Assembly: GCA_964655375.1 (NCBI GenBank)
Contig: CAZZNB010000045.1
Location: 2,015 to 66,014, forward strand
Direction of reading: 5' to 3'
Source: an uncultured Candidatus Saccharibacteria bacterium
Lineage (GTDB): Bacteria; Patescibacteriota; Minisyncoccia; UBA6257; HR35
DNA length: 64,000 bases
This document shows, piece after piece, positions 4,180-60,134 of the stretch. The position numbers and the translations under genes were made by a program. The notes under the pieces are model-generated. The model saw only the letters and a program-made list of their open reading frames with translations. It did not search any database and was not told the origin of the DNA. Position 1 is the stretch's first letter, and each line of letters opens with the position of its first letter.

Positions 4180-6261
4180 ATGAAAAGAAAATATAAATTT
4201 GTGATATTTATTGAAATAATATTCGTAGCATTATTGGCTATTTTCTTTATAGGATTAGCCATAGTTTTTGTATTAATAAGTATTTATGTAAGTAATCTAC
4301 CTTCAATTGAAATATTAACAGAAACTATTAGAGGTGGAAGTACTCAAATTTATGATAGGGAAGGTAAGGTTTTGCTTTATGAAATAGGATTAAGACAATA
4401 TCCAATTAGCTATGAAGAGTTATCAAATAAAGTGGTTTATTCAACTTTAGCTGCTGAAGATGATTCATTTTTTGAACATAAGGGGGTTAGCATTAAAGGC
4501 ATAATAAGGTCAATAATATTAAATTTAAAAACTGGTAGTTTAACTTATGGAGGCTCTACCATTACACAGCAACTTGCAAGAAATTTATTTTTAACACAAG
4601 AAAAGTCTATTATTAGAAAGATAAAAGAGATATTATTAGCTTTGGAAATTGAAAGAAAGTTTACTAAAGAGCAAATTTTAACTATGTATTTAAACTCAAT
4701 TAATTATGGGGCAGGAAATATAGGAATAAAAGCTGCTGCAGATTTTTATTTTAATAAAAATCTAAAAGATATTTCTTGGTCTGAAGCTGCTATTTTAGCT
4801 GCTATTCCTAAATCTCCTAAATATTATTCTCCTATTTATGAAGAAAACTTACAAAGATTAAAAAAAAGAAGAGATTTTATATTAAGAAGATTATATGAAT
4901 TAGGTTGGATAAATTATAATGAATATTTAAATGCGATCAATGAACCAGTTAAAATAAGCCAGAAAAAATATTACAAAATTGCAGCACCACATTTTGTAAT
5001 AGAAGTTAAAAAAATATTAGAAAAAATGTTTCCTGATACTAATTTGGAATCTGCTGGTTTTAAAGTAATCACAACTTTAAACTATAAGTATCAAAAAATT
5101 GCAGAAGAGGTTGTAAAAGAAGGTGCTTTAAAAAACGAAAAGAATGCTGGAGCTAAAAATGCAAGTTTATTAATGATGGATGCTAAAACAGGAGAAATAT
5201 TAGCCATGGTAGGATCAAGAGATTTTTTTGATGAATCTATACAAGGACAAGTAAATATGACAATGGCTCCGAGACAACCTGGGTCAGCTTTTAAACCTAT
5301 ATCCTATGTTACTCTTTTCCAATTAGGTTATCCTATAGAAACAATAGTTTTTGATGTTCCTACAAATTTCGGAACAGAAAGAAATCCTTATACTCCCAAA
5401 AATTTTGATAATAAATTTAGAGGACCTGTTAATTTAAGAATTGCTTTAGCTCAGTCTATAAATATCCCTGCTGTTAAGGTATTTTATTTAGCAGGACCAG
5501 AAAGAGTGGTTGAAAATGCAAGAAAATTTGGCTTAACTACTATAAAAGACTATAAAAATTATGGGCTATCTTTAGGATTAGGAACAGCTGAAGTTAGAAT
5601 GATAGATTTATTAAAAGCATATTCTGTCTTTGCAAATGACGGAGAAATAGTTTCTCAAAGTCTAATATTAAAAATCTATAATTCAAAAGGAGAAATAATT
5701 TACGAATACAAACCAGAAAAAGAAAAGGTAATAGATTCTCAACCTGTAAGAATGGTTAATGATATATTAAAAGATTATGAAGCAAGACGCGGTTTATTTA
5801 TAAGAAGTTTACCTTTAACAAAAATAGATGACTATGAAATAGCAATTAAAACAGGAACTAGCCAATTTTACAGAGATGCTTGGACAATAGGATATACTCC
5901 TGAATTTATAGTAGGTGTTTGGGCTGGAAATACAGATGGCAAACCTGTTAAAGAAGGACTAAGTGTAGTAGCTACATTACCAATATGGCATAATTTTGTA
6001 TCAAAGATTATAAAAGACTTTCCAAAAACAAAATTTCCTCCTCCTTTACCAGTTAAAGTTAATAAAATATTGCTAAATGGCGAATGGATAAGTCCTTATG
6101 GGATTCACTCTGAATTATATTTCATAGATCGAAATAATCCTTTAGGTCCTATGCCAACAAATCCATACAATGATCCTCAATTTTACAATTGGGAAAATGG
6201 AGTTCAAAATTGGATTAATAGTTTAGGATTTCAATTTTATAATCTAAAAAATTTTTTTTAA
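4180..6261 (+). CDS. Class A penicillin-binding protein (bifunctional transglycosylase/transpeptidase, PBP1A-like)
   Basis: N-terminal TM segment. GT51 motifs EDDSFFEHKG and GGSTITQQLARN. Transpeptidase motifs SAFKP and KTGT. Confidence 0.9.
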   Translation: MKRKYKFVIFIEIIFVALLAIFFIGLAIVFVLISIYVSNLPSIEILTETIRGGSTQIYDREGKVLLYEIGLRQYPISYEELSNKVVYSTLAAEDDSFFEHKGVSIKGIIRSIILNLKTGSLTYGGSTITQQLARNLFLTQEKSIIRKIKEILLALEIERKFTKEQILTMYLNSINYGAGNIGIKAAADFYFNKNLKDISWSEAAILAAIPKSPKYYSPIYEENLQRLKKRRDFILRRLYELGWINYNEYLNAINEPVKISQKKYYKIAAPHFVIEVKKILEKMFPDTNLESAGFKVITTLNYKYQKIAEEVVKEGALKNEKNAGAKNASLLMMDAKTGEILAMVGSRDFFDESIQGQVNMTMAPRQPGSAFKPISYVTLFQLGYPIETIVFDVPTNFGTERNPYTPKNFDNKFRGPVNLRIALAQSINIPAVKVFYLAGPERVVENARKFGLTTIKDYKNYGLSLGLGTAEVRMIDLLKAYSVFANDGEIVSQSLILKIYNSKGEIIYEYKPEKEKVIDSQPVRMVNDILKDYEARRGLFIRSLPLTKIDDYEIAIKTGTSQFYRDAWTIGYTPEFIVGVWAGNTDGKPVKEGLSVVATLPIWHNFVSKIIKDFPKTKFPPPLPVKVNKILLNGEWISPYGIHSELYFIDRNNPLGPMPTNPYNDPQFYNWENGVQNWINSLGFQFYNLKNFF

Positions 6262-28026: not shown

Positions 28027-28030
28027 AATG

Positions 28031-28102
28031 TGCGGCTGGGAGGATTCGAACCTCCGACCTGGTGTTTATAAGACACCCGCTCTGCCACTGAGCTACAGCC
28101 GC
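28031..28102 (-). tRNA. tRNA-Ile with apparent anticodon UAU (decoding AUA)
   Basis: Cloverleaf: acceptor GCGGCTG/CAGCCGC, D-arm GCTC-AGTGGCA-GAGC, anticodon stem GGTGT/ACACC with loop CTTATAA, T-arm GGAGG-TTCGAAT-CCTCC. Confidence 0.7.
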
Positions 28103-47945: not shown

Positions 47946-48410
47946 ATGAAAAATAGAGTATTTCTTCAAAATCCGGGAATTTATTATCATTATCAAATAT
48001 TAGAAAGCTTTGAAGCTGGAATAGAGCTAAAAGGCTTTGAAGTCAAAGCCTTAAGAGAAGGGAAAGGAAGCTTAAAAGGAAGCTATGTTACTATAAAAGA
48101 TAATGAAGCTTATTTAGTAAATTTTAATATCCCTCCATACCAACCTAAAAATACACCAAAAGATTATGATGAAAATAGACCAAGAAAACTTTTATTAAAG
48201 AGAAAAGAAATAAATTATTTGATAGGAAAATTAAAAGAAAAGGGGTTAACATTAGTGCCAATCAAGGTTTATTCTAAAGGAAATCTTATTAAAATAGAAA
48301 TAGCTTTAGCAAAAGGTCTTAAAAAATATGAAAAAAGAGAAAAAATAAAAGAAAAAGAATTTAGAAGAGTAAAAGAAAGAGCAGAGAAAATAAAATATAG
48401 GGCTGGATAA
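47946..48410 (+). CDS. smpB: SsrA-binding protein SmpB
   Basis: 154 aa. GIELKGFEVKALREGKGSLKGSYV...RPRKLLLKRKEINYLIGK...GLTLVPIKVY...IEIALAKGLKKYEKRE matches the SmpB consensus. Confidence 0.9.
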   Translation: MKNRVFLQNPGIYYHYQILESFEAGIELKGFEVKALREGKGSLKGSYVTIKDNEAYLVNFNIPPYQPKNTPKDYDENRPRKLLLKRKEINYLIGKLKEKGLTLVPIKVYSKGNLIKIEIALAKGLKKYEKREKIKEKEFRRVKERAEKIKYRAG

Positions 48411-53305: not shown

Positions 53306-53432
53306 AAAATAAAACCAATACTAAAAGCCCCGCAGAAAATAAATAACTGCGGGGCAAAATTTTATTACAAAAATAGTATAATTGAAACAAAATATAGTCA
53401 AAAATATACGAAAAATATATATTTTTTACATC

Positions 53433-53460
53433 TTGACAAATAAAAATAAGTGATTATAAT
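53433..53460 (+). promoter_or_regulatory. Perfect consensus promoter P3 (TTGACA-16-TATAAT) driving the GC-rich cassette
   Basis: -35 at 53433-53438, -10 at 53455-53460. Confidence 0.55.
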
Positions 53461-53575
53461 TATTATTGGATACACTTAAAGTAGTATAAGACGTAAACTC
53501 CCCCGGGAGGGGGTTACAGGGAGCTGAGGGACTCCCTGTAGCTCGCCCGGGGAATAGAAAAGGAGGTGAAAGAAG

Positions 53576-53959
53576 ATGGATGAGCTGAAATTGAAACCTC
53601 ACAAACAACCCCAACCTCAACAACAACAGGAAGAGCAACAACCCCAACCTCAACCCCAACCCCCTACCAAGAAGGTCATTTTGCTTTTTGGTAGGGGGAC
53701 CGTCCAGTACGATCAGAGTAAGTACACTTTGATCGTACTGACGGGGATCCAACCCCACCCCCTGCACCAACCGGAGGAGTGGCTTGAGTTTGTCAAGTCG
53801 ATCCTCCGGGCCTTCTCCATCGCGAGGGTGGAAGAAGTGGTTATCGCGGTGGAGAGGGCACAGGTCCCCACGTTGATCTCTCTCACGCGGAACAATAAAA
53901 AGTTCCGCGTGGCACCCGCCGTCGTTAAGGACGGAAAGGTGTTCTACCCCGTAGTTTAA
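53576..53959 (+). CDS. GC-rich hypothetical protein with PQ-repeat N-terminus
   Basis: 127 aa: MDELKLKPHKQPQPQQQQEEQQPQPQPQPPTKK.... Perfect SD aaaGGAGGTGaaagaagATG. Codon usage is completely unlike the rest of the window. Confidence 0.45.
   Translation: MDELKLKPHKQPQPQQQQEEQQPQPQPQPPTKKVILLFGRGTVQYDQSKYTLIVLTGIQPHPLHQPEEWLEFVKSILRAFSIARVEEVVIAVERAQVPTLISLTRNNKKFRVAPAVVKDGKVFYPVV
53705..53740 (+). repeat. 11-bp perfect inverted repeat (cagtacgatca ... tgatcgtactg) with 14-bp spacer inside the GC-rich ORF
   Basis: Read directly. It is the reason both strands encode YDQS.YTLIVL. Confidence 0.6.
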
Positions 53960-54086
53960 GTCCTAACTTCCCAACCCTAACCACCCCACACCGCCCCCCG
54001 GCCCGACCCTCAGGGTTTCCCGTACAGGGGGGCTATTTAATTTTATGGAGAAATTTTTAATAGAAAAATTAAAAATTTTTAAGGAC

Positions 54087-54114
54087 TTGACAAATTAAAA
54101 TAATTTGTTATAAA
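54087..54114 (+). promoter_or_regulatory. Consensus promoter P4 (TTGACA-16-TATAAA)
   Basis: -35 at 54087-54092, -10 at 54109-54114, SD GGAGGTG at 54134-54140. Confidence 0.5.
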
Positions 54115-54146
54115 AATTATTAGCAAACTTGAAGGAGGTGCCTGAA

Positions 54147-55678: not shown

Positions 55679-55825
55679 TTACGGAGGAATATCTGGTCTA
55701 ATTGTATGCGTTCTCTGTACCGGGCAAACTCTTCTAGGGTCCCACTCAGGATGTTTATCAGGATCTATTTTGGGTGTTGGCTTAGGCTTTACTGGTGTTT
55801 TCGGCCTTGTCTTTTCTCTTTGCAT
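55679..55825 (-). CDS. Small Lys/Pro-rich basic protein (48 aa), absent from the ORF track
   Basis: Manual translation gives MQREKTRPKTPVKPKPTPKIDPDKHPEWDPRRVCPVQRTHTIRPDIPP. ATG at 55825 overlaps the TGA of the upstream gene (tgATG). GGAGGTG lies 7 nt upstream. Followed by a terminator at 55621-55645. The plus-strand ORF 55673-55888 in the track is probably its antisense artefact. Confidence 0.45.
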   Translation of the reverse strand: MQREKTRPKTPVKPKPTPKIDPDKHPEWDPRRVCPVQRTHTIRPDIPP

Positions 55826-56214
55826 CACACTTCACCTCCTCCTTCAAAGAGTCTTTTGAGCCTTTTCATCTCATTTTCCTCAGTATAATTCTTATCTTTT
55901 ATAGTTAATACTTTTTTAGCTTCAAAAATCAACTCTGCTCCTACCATATTTCTATTAATATCTACATCTTCAAAGCTTGAAACTGTTAATATTGCTAACA
56001 ATAATTCTTCTCTAATCGCAATTGTTACCATTTCTTTATCTAAGGAGAAAATATTTTCTTTTTCAGAAATATTAGGTATTTCTTTTAATATTTCTTCTAT
56101 AAGCTCATACCCTTCCTCTTTCTCTATAAGTCCGTTTTGTATAGCCAACAATATTCTTGTCCATAAATATCTTACAGATGCAAAGCTAAGACTAAGCTTA
56201 ACATTTTCAAACAT
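55825..56214 (-). CDS. Hypothetical protein, island operon gene 2
   Basis: ATG at 56214 (MFENVKLS), preceded by GGGAGGTG at 6 nt. The track start at 56223 is a GTG inside the SD. Confidence 0.45.
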   Translation of the reverse strand: MFENVKLSLSFASVRYLWTRILLAIQNGLIEKEEGYELIEEILKEIPNISEKENIFSLDKEMVTIAIREELLLAILTVSSFEDVDINRNMVGAELIFEAKKVLTIKDKNYTEENEMKRLKRLFEGGGEV

Positions 56215-57070
56215 CACCCTCACCTCCCTTAAGGGTTTCCATTTTTTCTATAAAGTTCATTATATGATGTTTTGGCATTGGATTTATATTTCCATTCAGT
56301 AATACTGGAATTTCTAATCCTCCTAGCCTTTCTACTACACTTTCTCCTAATGGCAATCTATTGCATTGATTTAAATCGATTAAAACTTTTTCTCCTGTTT
56401 TTATTCCATAATCATATAACAAAAATCTTCTCCACCAAGCTATAAATATTTTCATTTCATCAGATAGTTTTGAAGGAGTATAATTTACATGTGGTTTATA
56501 TAAACCTTGATTTCTATGATATTCTTCTATTGACTTGATTAAAGATCGAGCAAATTCTATGCTTGGTTTTTCTACTATATAAGGATAGCCAATAACATCT
56601 ATTAATTCTCTGCCATATCTATAACTTAAAGTTAATAAATTTATAAATTCCTCTGCGACAGGTCTTAACAAGATATCTGCTAATGGCTTTTGTAAATAAT
56701 ATAAATCTTTAATATCATTGAAATATTCAACTATTTCTTTTATACCCCAATATCCTTTTCTTAATATATCTACAAATTCTACTTCTTTTATTTTAAAATT
56801 TGGCTGAATATAACTTTTAATCCAAAAATGAGTACTTTCTGTATCTCTATTCCTATAAAGAGAAGCTATTATTACTCTCTCATATCTTGAATTTCCTAAT
56901 ACATATATGTTTTCATAGAAATTATATATTTCAGGCACTTCCTCTATTTTTTTACCAAATTCTGTTATATACTTTCCATAATTTTCATAATATAGAGATA
57001 GACTATAGTACAATCTTTGCTCTTCAGCTATACTCAACTTATCACAGAAATGAAATAACATAATTTTCAC
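56207..57070 (-). CDS. Hypothetical protein, island operon gene 1
   Basis: 287 aa. ATG at 57070 with GGAGGTG 7 nt upstream (cataattttcacctcc on the plus strand). Confidence 0.45.
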   Translation of the reverse strand: MKIMLFHFCDKLSIAEEQRLYYSLSLYYENYGKYITEFGKKIEEVPEIYNFYENIYVLGNSRYERVIIASLYRNRDTESTHFWIKSYIQPNFKIKEVEFVDILRKGYWGIKEIVEYFNDIKDLYYLQKPLADILLRPVAEEFINLLTLSYRYGRELIDVIGYPYIVEKPSIEFARSLIKSIEEYHRNQGLYKPHVNYTPSKLSDEMKIFIAWWRRFLLYDYGIKTGEKVLIDLNQCNRLPLGESVVERLGGLEIPVLLNGNINPMPKHHIMNFIEKMETLKGGEGDV

Positions 57071-58573: not shown

Positions 58574-58920
58574 GGGGGTGATAAATGGAATTCGAGGAGG
58601 AAAAAAGGTAAAAGGGGCTGGTGGCTTAGCCCGCCTTAAGGGCTAAAAATAAATGCCAACCAATCCTTTGCCTATGCTTTAAGCTAAGCATAGGGCTTTA
58701 CAGGAATTCAGTGCTAGGCTGGTCCTGTAGGGTGACGGAATCCTAGCTAGAAGTTAAAAGGTTAGAGAGGAGCCTTTTAACTTCGAAATTAAATATTCCT
58801 CTCAGGCCTTAGTCGTTTTGCCGGTTTTTGAGACTAAGGTTCAAATTTAAAAACCGGCTATACCAGTAGAACCTTTTACCTTTTTTTCTTCGACAGGGGT
58901 TCGATTCCCCTCACCTCCAC
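58574..58920 (+). ncRNA. ssrA: tmRNA (SsrA)
   Basis: The 5' end GGGGGUGAUAAAUGGAAUUCGAGGAGG parallels E. coli GGGGCUGAUUCUGGAUUCGACGGG. The 3' end GGGGUUCGAUUCCCCUCACCUCCAC is a tRNA-like T-arm plus acceptor that pairs with the 5' GGGGGUG. The internal reading frame GCC AAC CAA UCC UUU GCC UAU GCU UUA AGC UAA gives a tentative tag ANQSFAYALS. Confidence 0.75.
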
Positions 58921-59014
58921 AATTATTGATTTAAAATCTTAAAAATAAAACTTAAAAATAAAAGACATTAACTTATTTAAGATATTTTGAGATAAATGAG
59001 AAAATTATTTAATT

Positions 59015-60012
59015 TTATAATACTTGTTTTTTAATTTCATTAAATATTTGTTGGGCAATTTTATGATTCTGTTTTAAAAATTCTCTAGCTGATTGGAAAC
59101 TGTTACCTAATTTTAATTCATTAAAAAATAGAGAAGTTCCAGTTTTTTTAATAATCCCGTATTTTTCACCTAAGTTTAATAAATCAGCTTCATAAGATAT
59201 TCCTTCACCATAATATATTTCAAATTCGGCTGTTTTAAATGGAGGGGCAACTTTATTTTTAACAACTCTGGCTTTTACTTTCGTTCCTATAATTTCTTCG
59301 CCTCTTTTAATTTGGCCAACCTTTTTAAGTTCAATTCTTACAGAAGCATAAAATTTTAAAGCCTTTCCTCCTGGAGTGGTTTCTTGAGCACCTACCATTG
59401 CTCCGATTTGAGCTCTAGTTTGATTTAAGAAGATTAAAATTGTTTTAGTTTTAGAAATTAAAGCTGTTAGTTTTCTTAAAGCTTGTGAAAGTAACCTTGC
59501 TTGCAAACCTATAAAATGGTCTCCAATTTCTCCCTCTAATTCTGCCCTTGGCGCTAAAGCAGCAACGGAGTCAACAACAATAACATCAAAAATACCGGAT
59601 TTTACTAATCTCTCTACTAAATTTAAAGCGTCTTCTCCTGAATCCGGTTGAGAAATAATTATTTTTTTAATATCTACACCTATTTTTTTAGCATATTCTG
59701 GATCTAAGGCGTGCTCTACATCAATAAACGCTACATTCCCGCCCTTTTTTTGAGCTTCAGCTATAGTTTCTAGGGCCACTGTTGTTTTACCAGAAGCTTC
59801 TGGTCCAAATATTTCTATGATTCTCCCTCTTGGAAGCCCGCCTACTCCTAAAGCTAAATCTAATGAAGGAGAGCCAGTTGAAATAACTTCAACATCTACT
59901 TTTGGCATTTCTTCTAGTCTCATAACAGCACCTTCGCCAAATTCTTTTTGTAATTCTTTTATTAAACTATCTAAGTCTTCTTTAATTTCTTCTTTTTGTT
60001 TCTTTTTGGTCA
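59015..60012 (-). CDS. recA: Recombinase RecA
   Basis: Walker A GPEASGKTT with full-length RecA similarity (ALDPEYAKKIGVD, FINQ...). The likely start is the internal Met (MTKKKQKEE, 60012) rather than the track start at 60049. Confidence 0.95.
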
Positions 60013-60134
60013 TTAATTTAATTATATTACCCTTTTTGCTTAATAACAATACTATTAATTTTCGTAATTTATCATTAAAAATTTATTATAATATAAAAAA
60101 TTTTTGAATAAAATAGAATAAAATAAATAAAATA

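Follow-up and report, generated by a model that had tools for sequence, protein, structure and literature searches.

Secondary structure of the messenger RNA probably shapes the composition of a GC-rich gene in an AT-rich Patescibacteria genome

Pairing of the 5′ untranslated region (UTR) of an mRNA with its 3′ UTR, structured leaders, and GC-rich islands that mark structured RNAs are all already known. Klein, Misulovin and Eddy are said to have screened in 2002 for structured RNA genes as GC-rich islands in AT-rich genomes. In the bifunctional bacterial RNAs SgrS/SgrT, RNAIII/hld and SR1/SR1P, the encoded peptides are about 26-43 amino acids (aa) long and the structure lies mostly outside the open reading frame (ORF). 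The hbs mRNA of B. subtilis has a structured leader and a very strong Shine-Dalgarno (SD) sequence, and a 14-bp interaction between its 5′ and 3′ UTRs modulates cleavage by RNase Y (Braun, Durand and Condon 2017, PMC5737220). In S. aureus, the SD region of the icaR mRNA has as its pairing partner a UCCCCUG motif that lies in the 3′ UTR (Ruiz de los Mozos et al. 2013, PMC3868564), and the GC/IGR (intergenic region) pipeline uses GC-rich islands in AT-rich genomes to flag structured RNAs (PMC6429828). The subject of this study is a GC-rich block at positions 53497-54033 of a 64-kb stretch of contig CAZZNB010000045.1 (the window, by which we mean the whole of the stretch analysed), which carries a gene for a 127-aa protein. 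Our results suggest that the block is probably a vertically inherited, single-copy, monocistronic gene of a narrow AT-rich clade of Patescibacteria (Minisyncoccia) with its RNA structure under selection, and that by analogy its transcript may be seen as a structure-hardened mRNA resembling those of hbs and icaR.

The mRNA resembles that of hbs in being short and monocistronic, in encoding a small basic protein, and in its highly structured 5′ UTR and very strong SD sequence. As in hbs and icaR, complementary segments that are conserved or covarying are found in the two UTRs. However, the contact proposed here is a loop-loop contact of 5-7 bp whereas that of hbs is a 14-bp duplex, and here structure extends through the whole coding sequence (CDS), the composition of which is alien to the genome. 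The present mRNA, which has no sequence homology to hbs, belongs to a patescibacterium and is predicted from sequence comparison. Anti-SD-like ACCUC(C) motifs are present as in icaR, yet the 3′ loop has its best-supported partner in the apical loop of a 5′ hairpin and not in the SD sequence. The effect in icaR is repression and RNase III cleavage. The block also has the mark by which GC-island screens work, a sharp G+C peak equal to that of tRNAs and 5S rRNA in a genome of 27% G+C, and relatives have a second, non-coding example just upstream. In contrast to the islands of those screens, which are non-coding, the one described here holds a translated gene under purifying selection. RNAs of the SgrS/SgrT type are likewise structured RNAs that carry an ORF, but here the structured part itself encodes a folded domain of 127 aa.

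The window is AT-rich throughout, with 20-34% G+C in each kb, and the block, at 56.6%, stands out sharply from it. The G+C content goes from ~0.21 to 0.53-0.585 between ~53490 and ~54040 and then comes back down, a profile that bears out the abrupt flip over about 540 bp described in an earlier sequence-only reading of this DNA. The G+C content of the block is comparable to that of the tRNAs (58-66%) and the 5S rRNA (60%) of the window and is above that of the transfer-messenger RNA (tmRNA; 44%). The G+C content of the three codon positions of the ORF is 0.62, 0.32 and 0.66. The last of these, GC3, lies about 11 standard deviations from the 0.173 ± 0.042 (maximum 0.32) of the 53 other ORFs of the window. 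A/U runs of at least 4 nt cover only 8% of the block, whereas their mean share of the rest of the window is 54% (minimum 40%). The other landmarks in that reading were found as well, namely a TTGACA-16-TATAAT promoter outside the block, matching the consensus at 12 of 12 positions, a strong SD sequence followed by the 127-aa ORF, a perfect 11-bp inverted repeat (53705-53715 / 53730-53740), and modules shared between the two ends (CTGAGGG at 53524 with CCCTCAG at 54007, and CCCTGTA at 53534 with TACAGGG at 54023). Since these features are present, and given the fold z-scores reported below, the observation was correct and is far from chance.

Evidence on what holds this composition in place comes from an end-to-end alignment (A2) of the predicted transcript, from transcription start site to terminator, in 12 loci. 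RNAalifold finds in it 15 conserved helices with 108 pairs, of which 37 have changes on both sides, as opposed to 8-12 such pairs in controls with slid partners. Standard pairs occupy 94% of the cells but only 40-56% when partners are slid by 1-3 columns, and the covariation score is 0.313 compared with 0.104 or less after sliding. None of 500 shuffles reaches the observed values, although the 12 aligned sequences are related, so that the shuffle statistics overstate their independence and the slid-partner control is the more reliable of the two. Codon periodicity is not the cause of the signal, because a slide of ±3 columns retains the codon phase. The structured strand is that of the sense RNA, because G·U cells outnumber A·C cells (124 versus 28) and the consensus energy is lower in sense (-139.1 kcal/mol) than in antisense (-106.1 kcal/mol).

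The folding of individual sequences points in the same direction. The RNA from the window folds as a series of long hairpins (z=-7.5 relative to dinucleotide shuffles), and when its CDS is compared with synonymous-codon shuffles that keep both the protein and the codon usage fixed, z is -10.0 for the window and -3.2 to -8.5 for five homologues. Since the shuffled synonymous codons fold 3.2-10 standard deviations worse at these six loci, codon choice is arranged for pairing. The 11-bp inverted repeat forms the core of a hairpin of the CDS (hairpin B, consensus helix 7) in which four of seven pairs are changed on both sides and 90% of cells are paired. Its arms encode QYDQ and LIVL (cag/ctg, tac/gta, gat/atc), and in locus L010 a synonymous change from GAT to GAC is matched on the opposite arm by ATC to GTC, which replaces Ile by Val. 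A search of Rfam 15 gave nothing at the gathering score and, with an E-value threshold, chance-level matches only (E ≥0.18). On balance, comparative evidence favours an explanation in which GC-richness follows from how the sense RNA is folded over its full length, beside selection on the protein; the block would then be GC-rich because this structure is selected.

Good comparative evidence also suggests that the two ends of the transcript meet in a kissing contact. The G-rich apical loop UGAGGG of the inner 5′-UTR helix (H2) is complementary to CCCUCA (54007-54012) in the loop of a side hairpin of the terminator, and the CTGAGGG and CCCTCAG modules that the sequence-only reading saw at the two ends are these complementary loops. 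The loops of the other 11 sequences are CGGGGA and UCCCCG, or the variants CCCCG and UCUCCG (with a G·U pair); those of the distant locus L016 are GAGGGA and UCCCUC, so that GAGGG/CCCUC is shared between it and the window. The loops are complementary over 5-7 nt in all 13 sequences, with two positions exchanged on both sides between the clades, a covariation that amounts to a single evolutionary event because a single switch separates the two clades. For cognate duplexes the mean energies are -10.5 and -12.4 kcal/mol versus -6.8 kcal/mol for cross-clade combinations, and shuffled terminator interiors match the complementarity of the window in 0.3% only (p=0.003). Both loops are carried by helices that are supported by covariation (helices 2 and 15).

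The features of the transcription unit are collected in Table 1. The TTGACA...TATAAT pair is at the same position in all loci that extend far enough. The element ATATAGTCAAAAA farther upstream may be an upstream promoter (UP) element or the site of a regulator; its repeats in the window are not beyond chance, and it is specific to the promoter of the block. That promoter (53432-53460) and a promoter-like site of the downstream Zn-ribbon gene (54086-54116) share CTTGACAAAT(A/T)AAAATAA.

In the 5′ UTR, the outer helix H1 is formed by CCCCGGG (53501-53507) and CCCGGGG (53546-53552) and has one compensatory pair (U-A in eight loci, G-C in four). In H2, where 53511-53523 pair with 53532-53544, 10 of 12 pairs are changed on both sides and 99% of cells are paired; the sequence of this stem is wholly different between the clades, and the apical loop retains its G-rich motif. 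Covariation thus backs the structured 5′ and 3′ UTRs that the sequence-only reading had offered as a secondary suggestion, and the suggestion can be extended. The hairpins it placed at the two boundaries do both exist, but its local 5′ hairpin CCCCC-GGGA-GGGGG is not conserved: leaders of the L003 type are unable to form it, and covariation favours H1 and H2. A kink-turn in the 3-nt AGA bulge between H1 and H2 was also considered and rejected, the positions of the tandem G·A/A·G pairs being GG and UG. The 5′ UTR of the window (53497-53575) is 89% identical to that of L016 (274-353), compared with 52% nucleotide identity of the CDSs, which indicates either an unusually strong constraint on the leader or an exchange of the UTR by recombination. 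In the window only, the 3′ strand of H2 (CUCCCUGUA, 53532-53540) has a further complement in UACAGGGGG (54023-54031), which lies in the terminator's 3′ arm. The GUACAGGGGG segment is conserved in relatives, yet their H2 sequences differ. An alternative pairing of H2 with the terminator is possible in the window and may be a coincidence.

The beginning of the CDS encodes a tract rich in proline and glutamine (the PQ tract), with the composition A 0.42, C 0.42, G 0.07 and T 0.09, similar in the homologues; it is predicted to be mostly single-stranded, with an unpaired probability of 0.65-0.74. Behind it follow the hairpins. Hairpin D appears in the consensus as fragments only (helices 9 and 10), its extension being on the outer side of the core at some loci but within the core at others (for instance, CTCGCGAGTACA...TGTACTCGC in L010). 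Hairpin E has compensatory changes in two pairs (G-C/C-G/U-A and C-G/A-U/U-A). Helix 13 at the end of the CDS has 18 pairs that enclose the stop codon in relatives and is shorter in the window, as a hairpin at 53912-53942. The C-rich tract of the 3′ UTR is 39-75 nt long in the homologues, with a C content of 0.46-0.62. Its likeness in composition to the PQ tract suggests that both are shaped at the RNA level, in which case the low-complexity and probably disordered PQ peptide may be partly a by-product. The unit ends in the GC-rich stem and U-run of an intrinsic terminator. The stem (helix 14) is conserved in all loci, and the terminator is atypical in having a side hairpin (54000-54017; helix 15), in which three of six pairs are compensatory.

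Table 1. Features of the GC-rich gene and its predicted transcript (positions in the window)
Feature	Position	Strand	Remarks
Upstream element ATATAGTCAAAAA	53392..53404	+	about 30 nt 5′ of the -35 hexamer; present in homologous loci including the distant L016
Sigma-70-type promoter	53433..53460	+	TTGACA 53433-53438, 16-nt spacer, TATAAT 53455-53460
Predicted monocistronic transcript, ~570 nt	53468..54038	+	ends inferred: 5′ by the -10 hexamer, 3′ by the terminator
5′-UTR two-helix element	53501..53552	+	H1 outer, H2 inner
G-rich apical loop UGAGGG of H2	53525..53530	+	proposed 5′ kissing partner
Shine-Dalgarno sequence AAGGAGGTGA	53560..53569	+	6 nt before ATG; invariant in 12/12 aligned loci (columns 101-110)
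CDS	53576..53959	+	127-aa protein; P/Q-rich N-terminus (~1-30), then a basic alpha/beta domain
C/A-rich, G/U-poor PQ-coding tract	53585..53665	+	81 nt, 84% A+C, three ACCUC motifs
CDS hairpin A	53660..53698	+	15-bp stem; core is consensus helix 6, compensatory A-U/G-C at synonymous sites
CDS hairpin B	53700..53744	+	stems of 5 and 14 bp; core is the 11-bp inverted repeat
CDS hairpin C	53771..53809	+	16 bp; consensus helix 8, 9/16 pairs changed on both sides, 88.5% of cells paired
CDS hairpin D	53810..53859	+	16-bp stem in the window; core CGCGA/UCGCG common to the loci
CDS hairpin E	53884..53911	+	CACGCGGAAC pairs with GUUCCGCGUG, 10 bp; consensus helix 12
CDS-end structure	53912..53961	+	consensus helix 13; 94% of cells paired, mostly invariant
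C-rich, G-poor 3′-UTR tract	53960..53992	+	C 0.52, G 0.03
Branched intrinsic terminator	53993..54045	+	GCCCCCC (53993-53999) pairs with GGGGGGC (54027-54033), followed by the T-rich tail CTATTTAATTTT

The ACCUC(C) motifs of the two C-rich tracts allow another reading of the locus. In principle, a motif in the 3′ UTR or the PQ tract could pair with the SD sequence, as translational autoregulation or as a thermosensor, and be released by temperature or by a factor, the other structure being secondary. ACCUC is enriched in the two tracts (25 observed versus 6.2 ± 2.4) with at least one in every locus, and the icaR mRNA offers a precedent; however, CCUC is fairly expected in C-rich sequence and the loci are non-independent. 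The 3′-UTR tract of the other 11 loci has ACCUCC one to three times, and RNAalifold pairs GGAGG with CCUCC in 10 of the 12 aligned loci (consensus helix 3), a pairing for which covariation support is not possible because the SD sequence is invariant. The 3′ UTR of the window has no CCUCC motif; in its minimum free energy fold GAGGU (53563-53567) is paired instead with ACCUC (53614-53618) of the PQ tract. As SD sequestration covers part of the anatomy only, and leaves the CDS hairpins and the high GC3 unexplained, we consider it unlikely to be the principal explanation of the locus.

The sequence-only reading had taken the block for a non-autonomous element like a miniature inverted-repeat transposable element (MITE), or for part of a high-GC genome, that had been captured inside an island. 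A recent capture of such an element, genome part or viral fragment would suit the abrupt compositional boundaries of the block, its size of ~0.5 kb, the short complementary motifs near both ends and the GC3 some 11 standard deviations from that of the other window genes. Its position and age argue strongly against it. Among the 17 loci retrieved, which include a close family and the distant L016 and L017, the promoter-leader-CDS-terminator unit occupies one and the same syntenic position in no fewer than 13 independent loci, one of them in a Minisyncoccia metagenome-assembled genome (MAG), in the gene order smpB ... 211-aa ORF ... gene ... Zn-ribbon ORF ... 113-aa ORF ... tmRNA/recA. In the window and the close family, one flank holds smpB, two ORFs of ~300 aa and ORFs of 158, 154 and 211 aa, and the other the Zn-ribbon ORF, an ORF of 111-113 aa, a pair of ORFs of 130 and 48 aa, tmRNA and recA. 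The AT-rich promoter, the ATATAGTCAAAAA element, the leader and the terminator, including parts outside the block, are conserved together with it. The G+C content of the gene is 50-59% throughout the close family and 44% in L016, between flanks of 26-35%. Synonymous sites are near saturation, with a median proportion of synonymous differences (pS) of 0.56 between pairs and a synonymous divergence (dS) of ~1-2. As the gene is GC-rich everywhere despite this near-saturation, its composition has been long held and was not recently imported.

None of the marks of a mobile element was found either. The degenerate terminal inverted repeats claimed for the block are not collinear: a local alignment of the 5′ 60 nt with the reverse complement of the 3′ 60 nt scores 15, no better than shuffles (14.1 ± 2.4, p=0.37). 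The flanks GACGTAAACT (5′ side) and CTATTTAATT (3′ side) have no common direct repeat that could be a target-site duplication, and the 64-kb window holds no second copy of the block. Searches of phages, plasmids and viral contigs gave no relatives, a pattern scan for the protein in genome contigs gave no match, and a scan of genome contigs with the DNA pattern CACCGGCCCCCAG...GGGGGCCT gave mostly Streptomyces and other genomes unrelated to the clade. The protein family has four representatives in 1.84 billion proteins, and no homologue was found in a GC-rich context except L007, a contig of transcript copies only; no GC-rich donor lineage is therefore known. In contrast to a MITE, the block is single-copy, has a fixed orthologous position and contains a conserved gene. 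On comparative grounds the block is not a captured mobile element but a long-established gene, fixed and single-copy, in a small AT-rich group of Patescibacteria; recent capture, whether of an element or of a foreign fragment, is highly improbable.

It is equally hard to credit that the block is a non-coding structured RNA with a spurious ORF, or an assembly chimera. Misassembly can create AT/GC junctions, and the sequence-only reading had called for a check on this point, but two independent assemblies of this contig show the same junctions, and so do 12 or more orthologous loci from other assemblies; a chimeric assembly is excluded on that account. GC-rich DNA within an AT genome full of stop codons can yield long ORFs by chance. 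However, the median ratio of nonsynonymous to synonymous divergence (dN/dS) is 0.23, the indels by which the PQ tract varies in length preserve the reading frame, the G+C contents of the codon positions differ as given above, and the SD sequence, correctly spaced from the start codon, does not vary. AlphaFold, with only 11 sequences as input, gives a confident fold with a mean predicted local distance difference test (pLDDT) score of 79.6, in which residues 30-120 are above 90 and residues 1-19 below 50. The ORF is a real gene, under purifying selection and with a product that is predicted to be foldable.

The product appears from the model to be a small basic alpha/beta domain without a known family, and the low scores of its N-terminal residues suggest that they are disordered. 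The folded part is basic, with an isoelectric point (pI) of ~10 and 14-17 K+R as against 8-11 D+E in the close family, and the N-terminal tail is acidic to neutral. The homologues form ten clusters at 52-67% identity, all of them unannotated and one from the Minisyncoccia (Patescibacteria) MAG; a profile search of 1.84 billion representative proteins matched four representatives in all and added only two distant relatives. No Pfam family was matched (best E-value 0.18), sequence searches of PHROGs and the PDB gave no significant match, and Foldseek against the PDB and against viral models gave best E-values of 0.1 and 0.046 and no assignment. The weak fold neighbours include CARF/SAVED and the Argonaute MID domain, which bind nucleotides or RNA.

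These properties of the protein are of interest in the context of a further explanation, that the transcript is itself functional, as a scaffold, a sponge or a part of a ribonucleoprotein (RNP), and encodes a basic partner protein that binds its hairpins or C-rich tracts. The structure is conserved from end to end and so beyond the UTRs, the UTRs are better conserved than the CDS, and the 57% G+C of the block is like that of tRNAs and 5S rRNA (58-66%) and above that of tmRNA (44%). The pI of the domain, its RNA- or nucleotide-binding fold neighbours, and the contig L007 with its transcript units only, which would fit a very abundant RNA, are all consistent with such a role, and no result speaks directly against it. 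However, no Rfam family is matched, and a role in stability or regulation accounts for the same data with fewer assumptions, so that a bifunctional RNA is a possible but rather unlikely explanation. A slightly more doubtful version would have an undescribed class of large (~600 nt) Patescibacteria RNA that doubles as the mRNA of its partner protein, being a self-encoded RNP or acting in trans through its C-rich or anti-SD-like tracts, with the closure of the ends as functional architecture and not only as a stabilising device.

L007 itself (1-1585) is a contig of 1585 nt with 58% G+C throughout, and consists only of transcript-like units of three sequence variants. The terminator end of a unit is fused straight to a 5′ UTR or CDS, without promoter or AT-rich spacer, and positions 1-107 are repeated at 214-320. 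It may be RNA-derived, an artefact of the assembly graph or a true array, and if RNA-derived would indicate high expression.

Our preferred explanation remains that of an mRNA whose own structure is selected, and from the conservation, covariation, coding selection and loop complementarity described above we infer the following for its stability and translation and for the role of its protein. A consensus promoter would give a transcript of ~570 nt, in which the two stacked helices of the 5′ UTR present the G-rich apical loop. The strong SD sequence and the C/A tract of ~80 nt that encodes the PQ peptide, a tract unable to pair with itself, would leave the initiation region open, and the remaining CDS would form a chain of hairpins of 10-16 bp. 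After a second C-rich single-stranded tract in the 3′ UTR comes the branched terminator, the C-rich side loop of which would kiss the 5′ loop and so close the ends of the mRNA. With few A/U-rich single-stranded targets for RNases and with both ends protected, the mRNA would be long-lived and would provide a high or tightly tuned output of the small basic protein. The ACCUC(C) anti-SD-like motifs could add sequestration of the SD sequence as a further control. The organism is probably thermophilic, the fraction of IVYWREL residues being 0.453, for which the proxy is ~90 °C; if it is, stable hairpins would demand G+C.

Several points weigh against this explanation, in addition to the relatedness of the aligned sequences and the single switch behind the loop covariation. 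By the inferred transcription start, an AT-rich leader of ~33 nt precedes the first helix, unlike a classical protective hairpin at the 5′ end. The CDS hairpins are partly non-universal, with helix 7 lost in L011, L012 and L013, and the least structured locus, L001, folds merely 3.2 standard deviations better than its own shuffles. The proxies for thermophily partly disagree, tmRNA having a G+C content of only 44%, and a search of the literature by sample and assembly accession gave nothing on the habitat. It is not evident that stability needs so elaborate a design, and the RNA may itself be functional.

The surroundings of the gene deserve a brief description. In the window, the block is one of a set of conserved small hypothetical genes that span ~10 kb between smpB (47946-48410) and its partner, the tmRNA (58574-58922), recA follows after tmRNA at 59015-60049 on the minus strand, and the distant relative L017 lies near lepA and a gene for D-Tyr-tRNA deacylase. 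Given these neighbours, a link of the locus to translation is possible. Two neighbouring ORFs of 304 aa were compared and are not paralogues. On the minus strand, at 55679-55828, there is a P/K/R-rich ORF of 49 aa (MMQREKTRPKTPVKPKP...) with 45% G+C, whose GC3 ranks second in the window. L011 has a conserved counterpart (5270-5416), and in L001 and L016 an ORF of 48 aa is called at the matching position. The start of the 49-aa ORF and the stop of the 132-aa ORF upstream of it (55825-56223) overlap, an arrangement which suggests translational coupling. The second G+C peak of relatives lies ~400 nt upstream of the block (L011 2440-2790, L010 1870-2190, L015 2470-2790) and is a candidate multi-branched RNA of ~170 nt (z=-5.2) with its own TTGACA/TATAAT promoter and, further downstream, a GGGGACGTCGTACGTCCCC terminator. 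This candidate has no Rfam family, and BLAST finds no counterpart of it in the window. Elsewhere in the window, at 28030-28102 on the minus strand, there is a tRNA-Ile with the anticodon UAU; in most bacteria AUA is read instead by a CAU tRNA modified with lysidine.

Keyword searches of the literature, none aimed at these features in particular, gave no description of a gene for a folded domain that is a compositional island through covarying structure of its whole mRNA, or of a bacterial mRNA closed by kissing loops; for Patescibacteria, the same searches, again not specifically aimed, gave no description of either. As a rule, selection on mRNA structure is slight in its effects and limited to UTRs or start regions. 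In the present case its strength appears sufficient to determine the composition of an entire gene, through saturating synonymous divergence. Compositional outliers of AT-rich genomes should not be ascribed automatically to horizontal transfer or mobile elements. If our explanation is true, the Patescibacteria, a lineage on whose RNA metabolism almost nothing is known, would provide an example of a bacterial closed-loop mRNA built from kissing loops, and a natural case in which protein sequence and RNA fold co-evolve codon by codon, as in the QYDQ/LIVL palindrome and the change from GAT to GAC that goes with Ile to Val.

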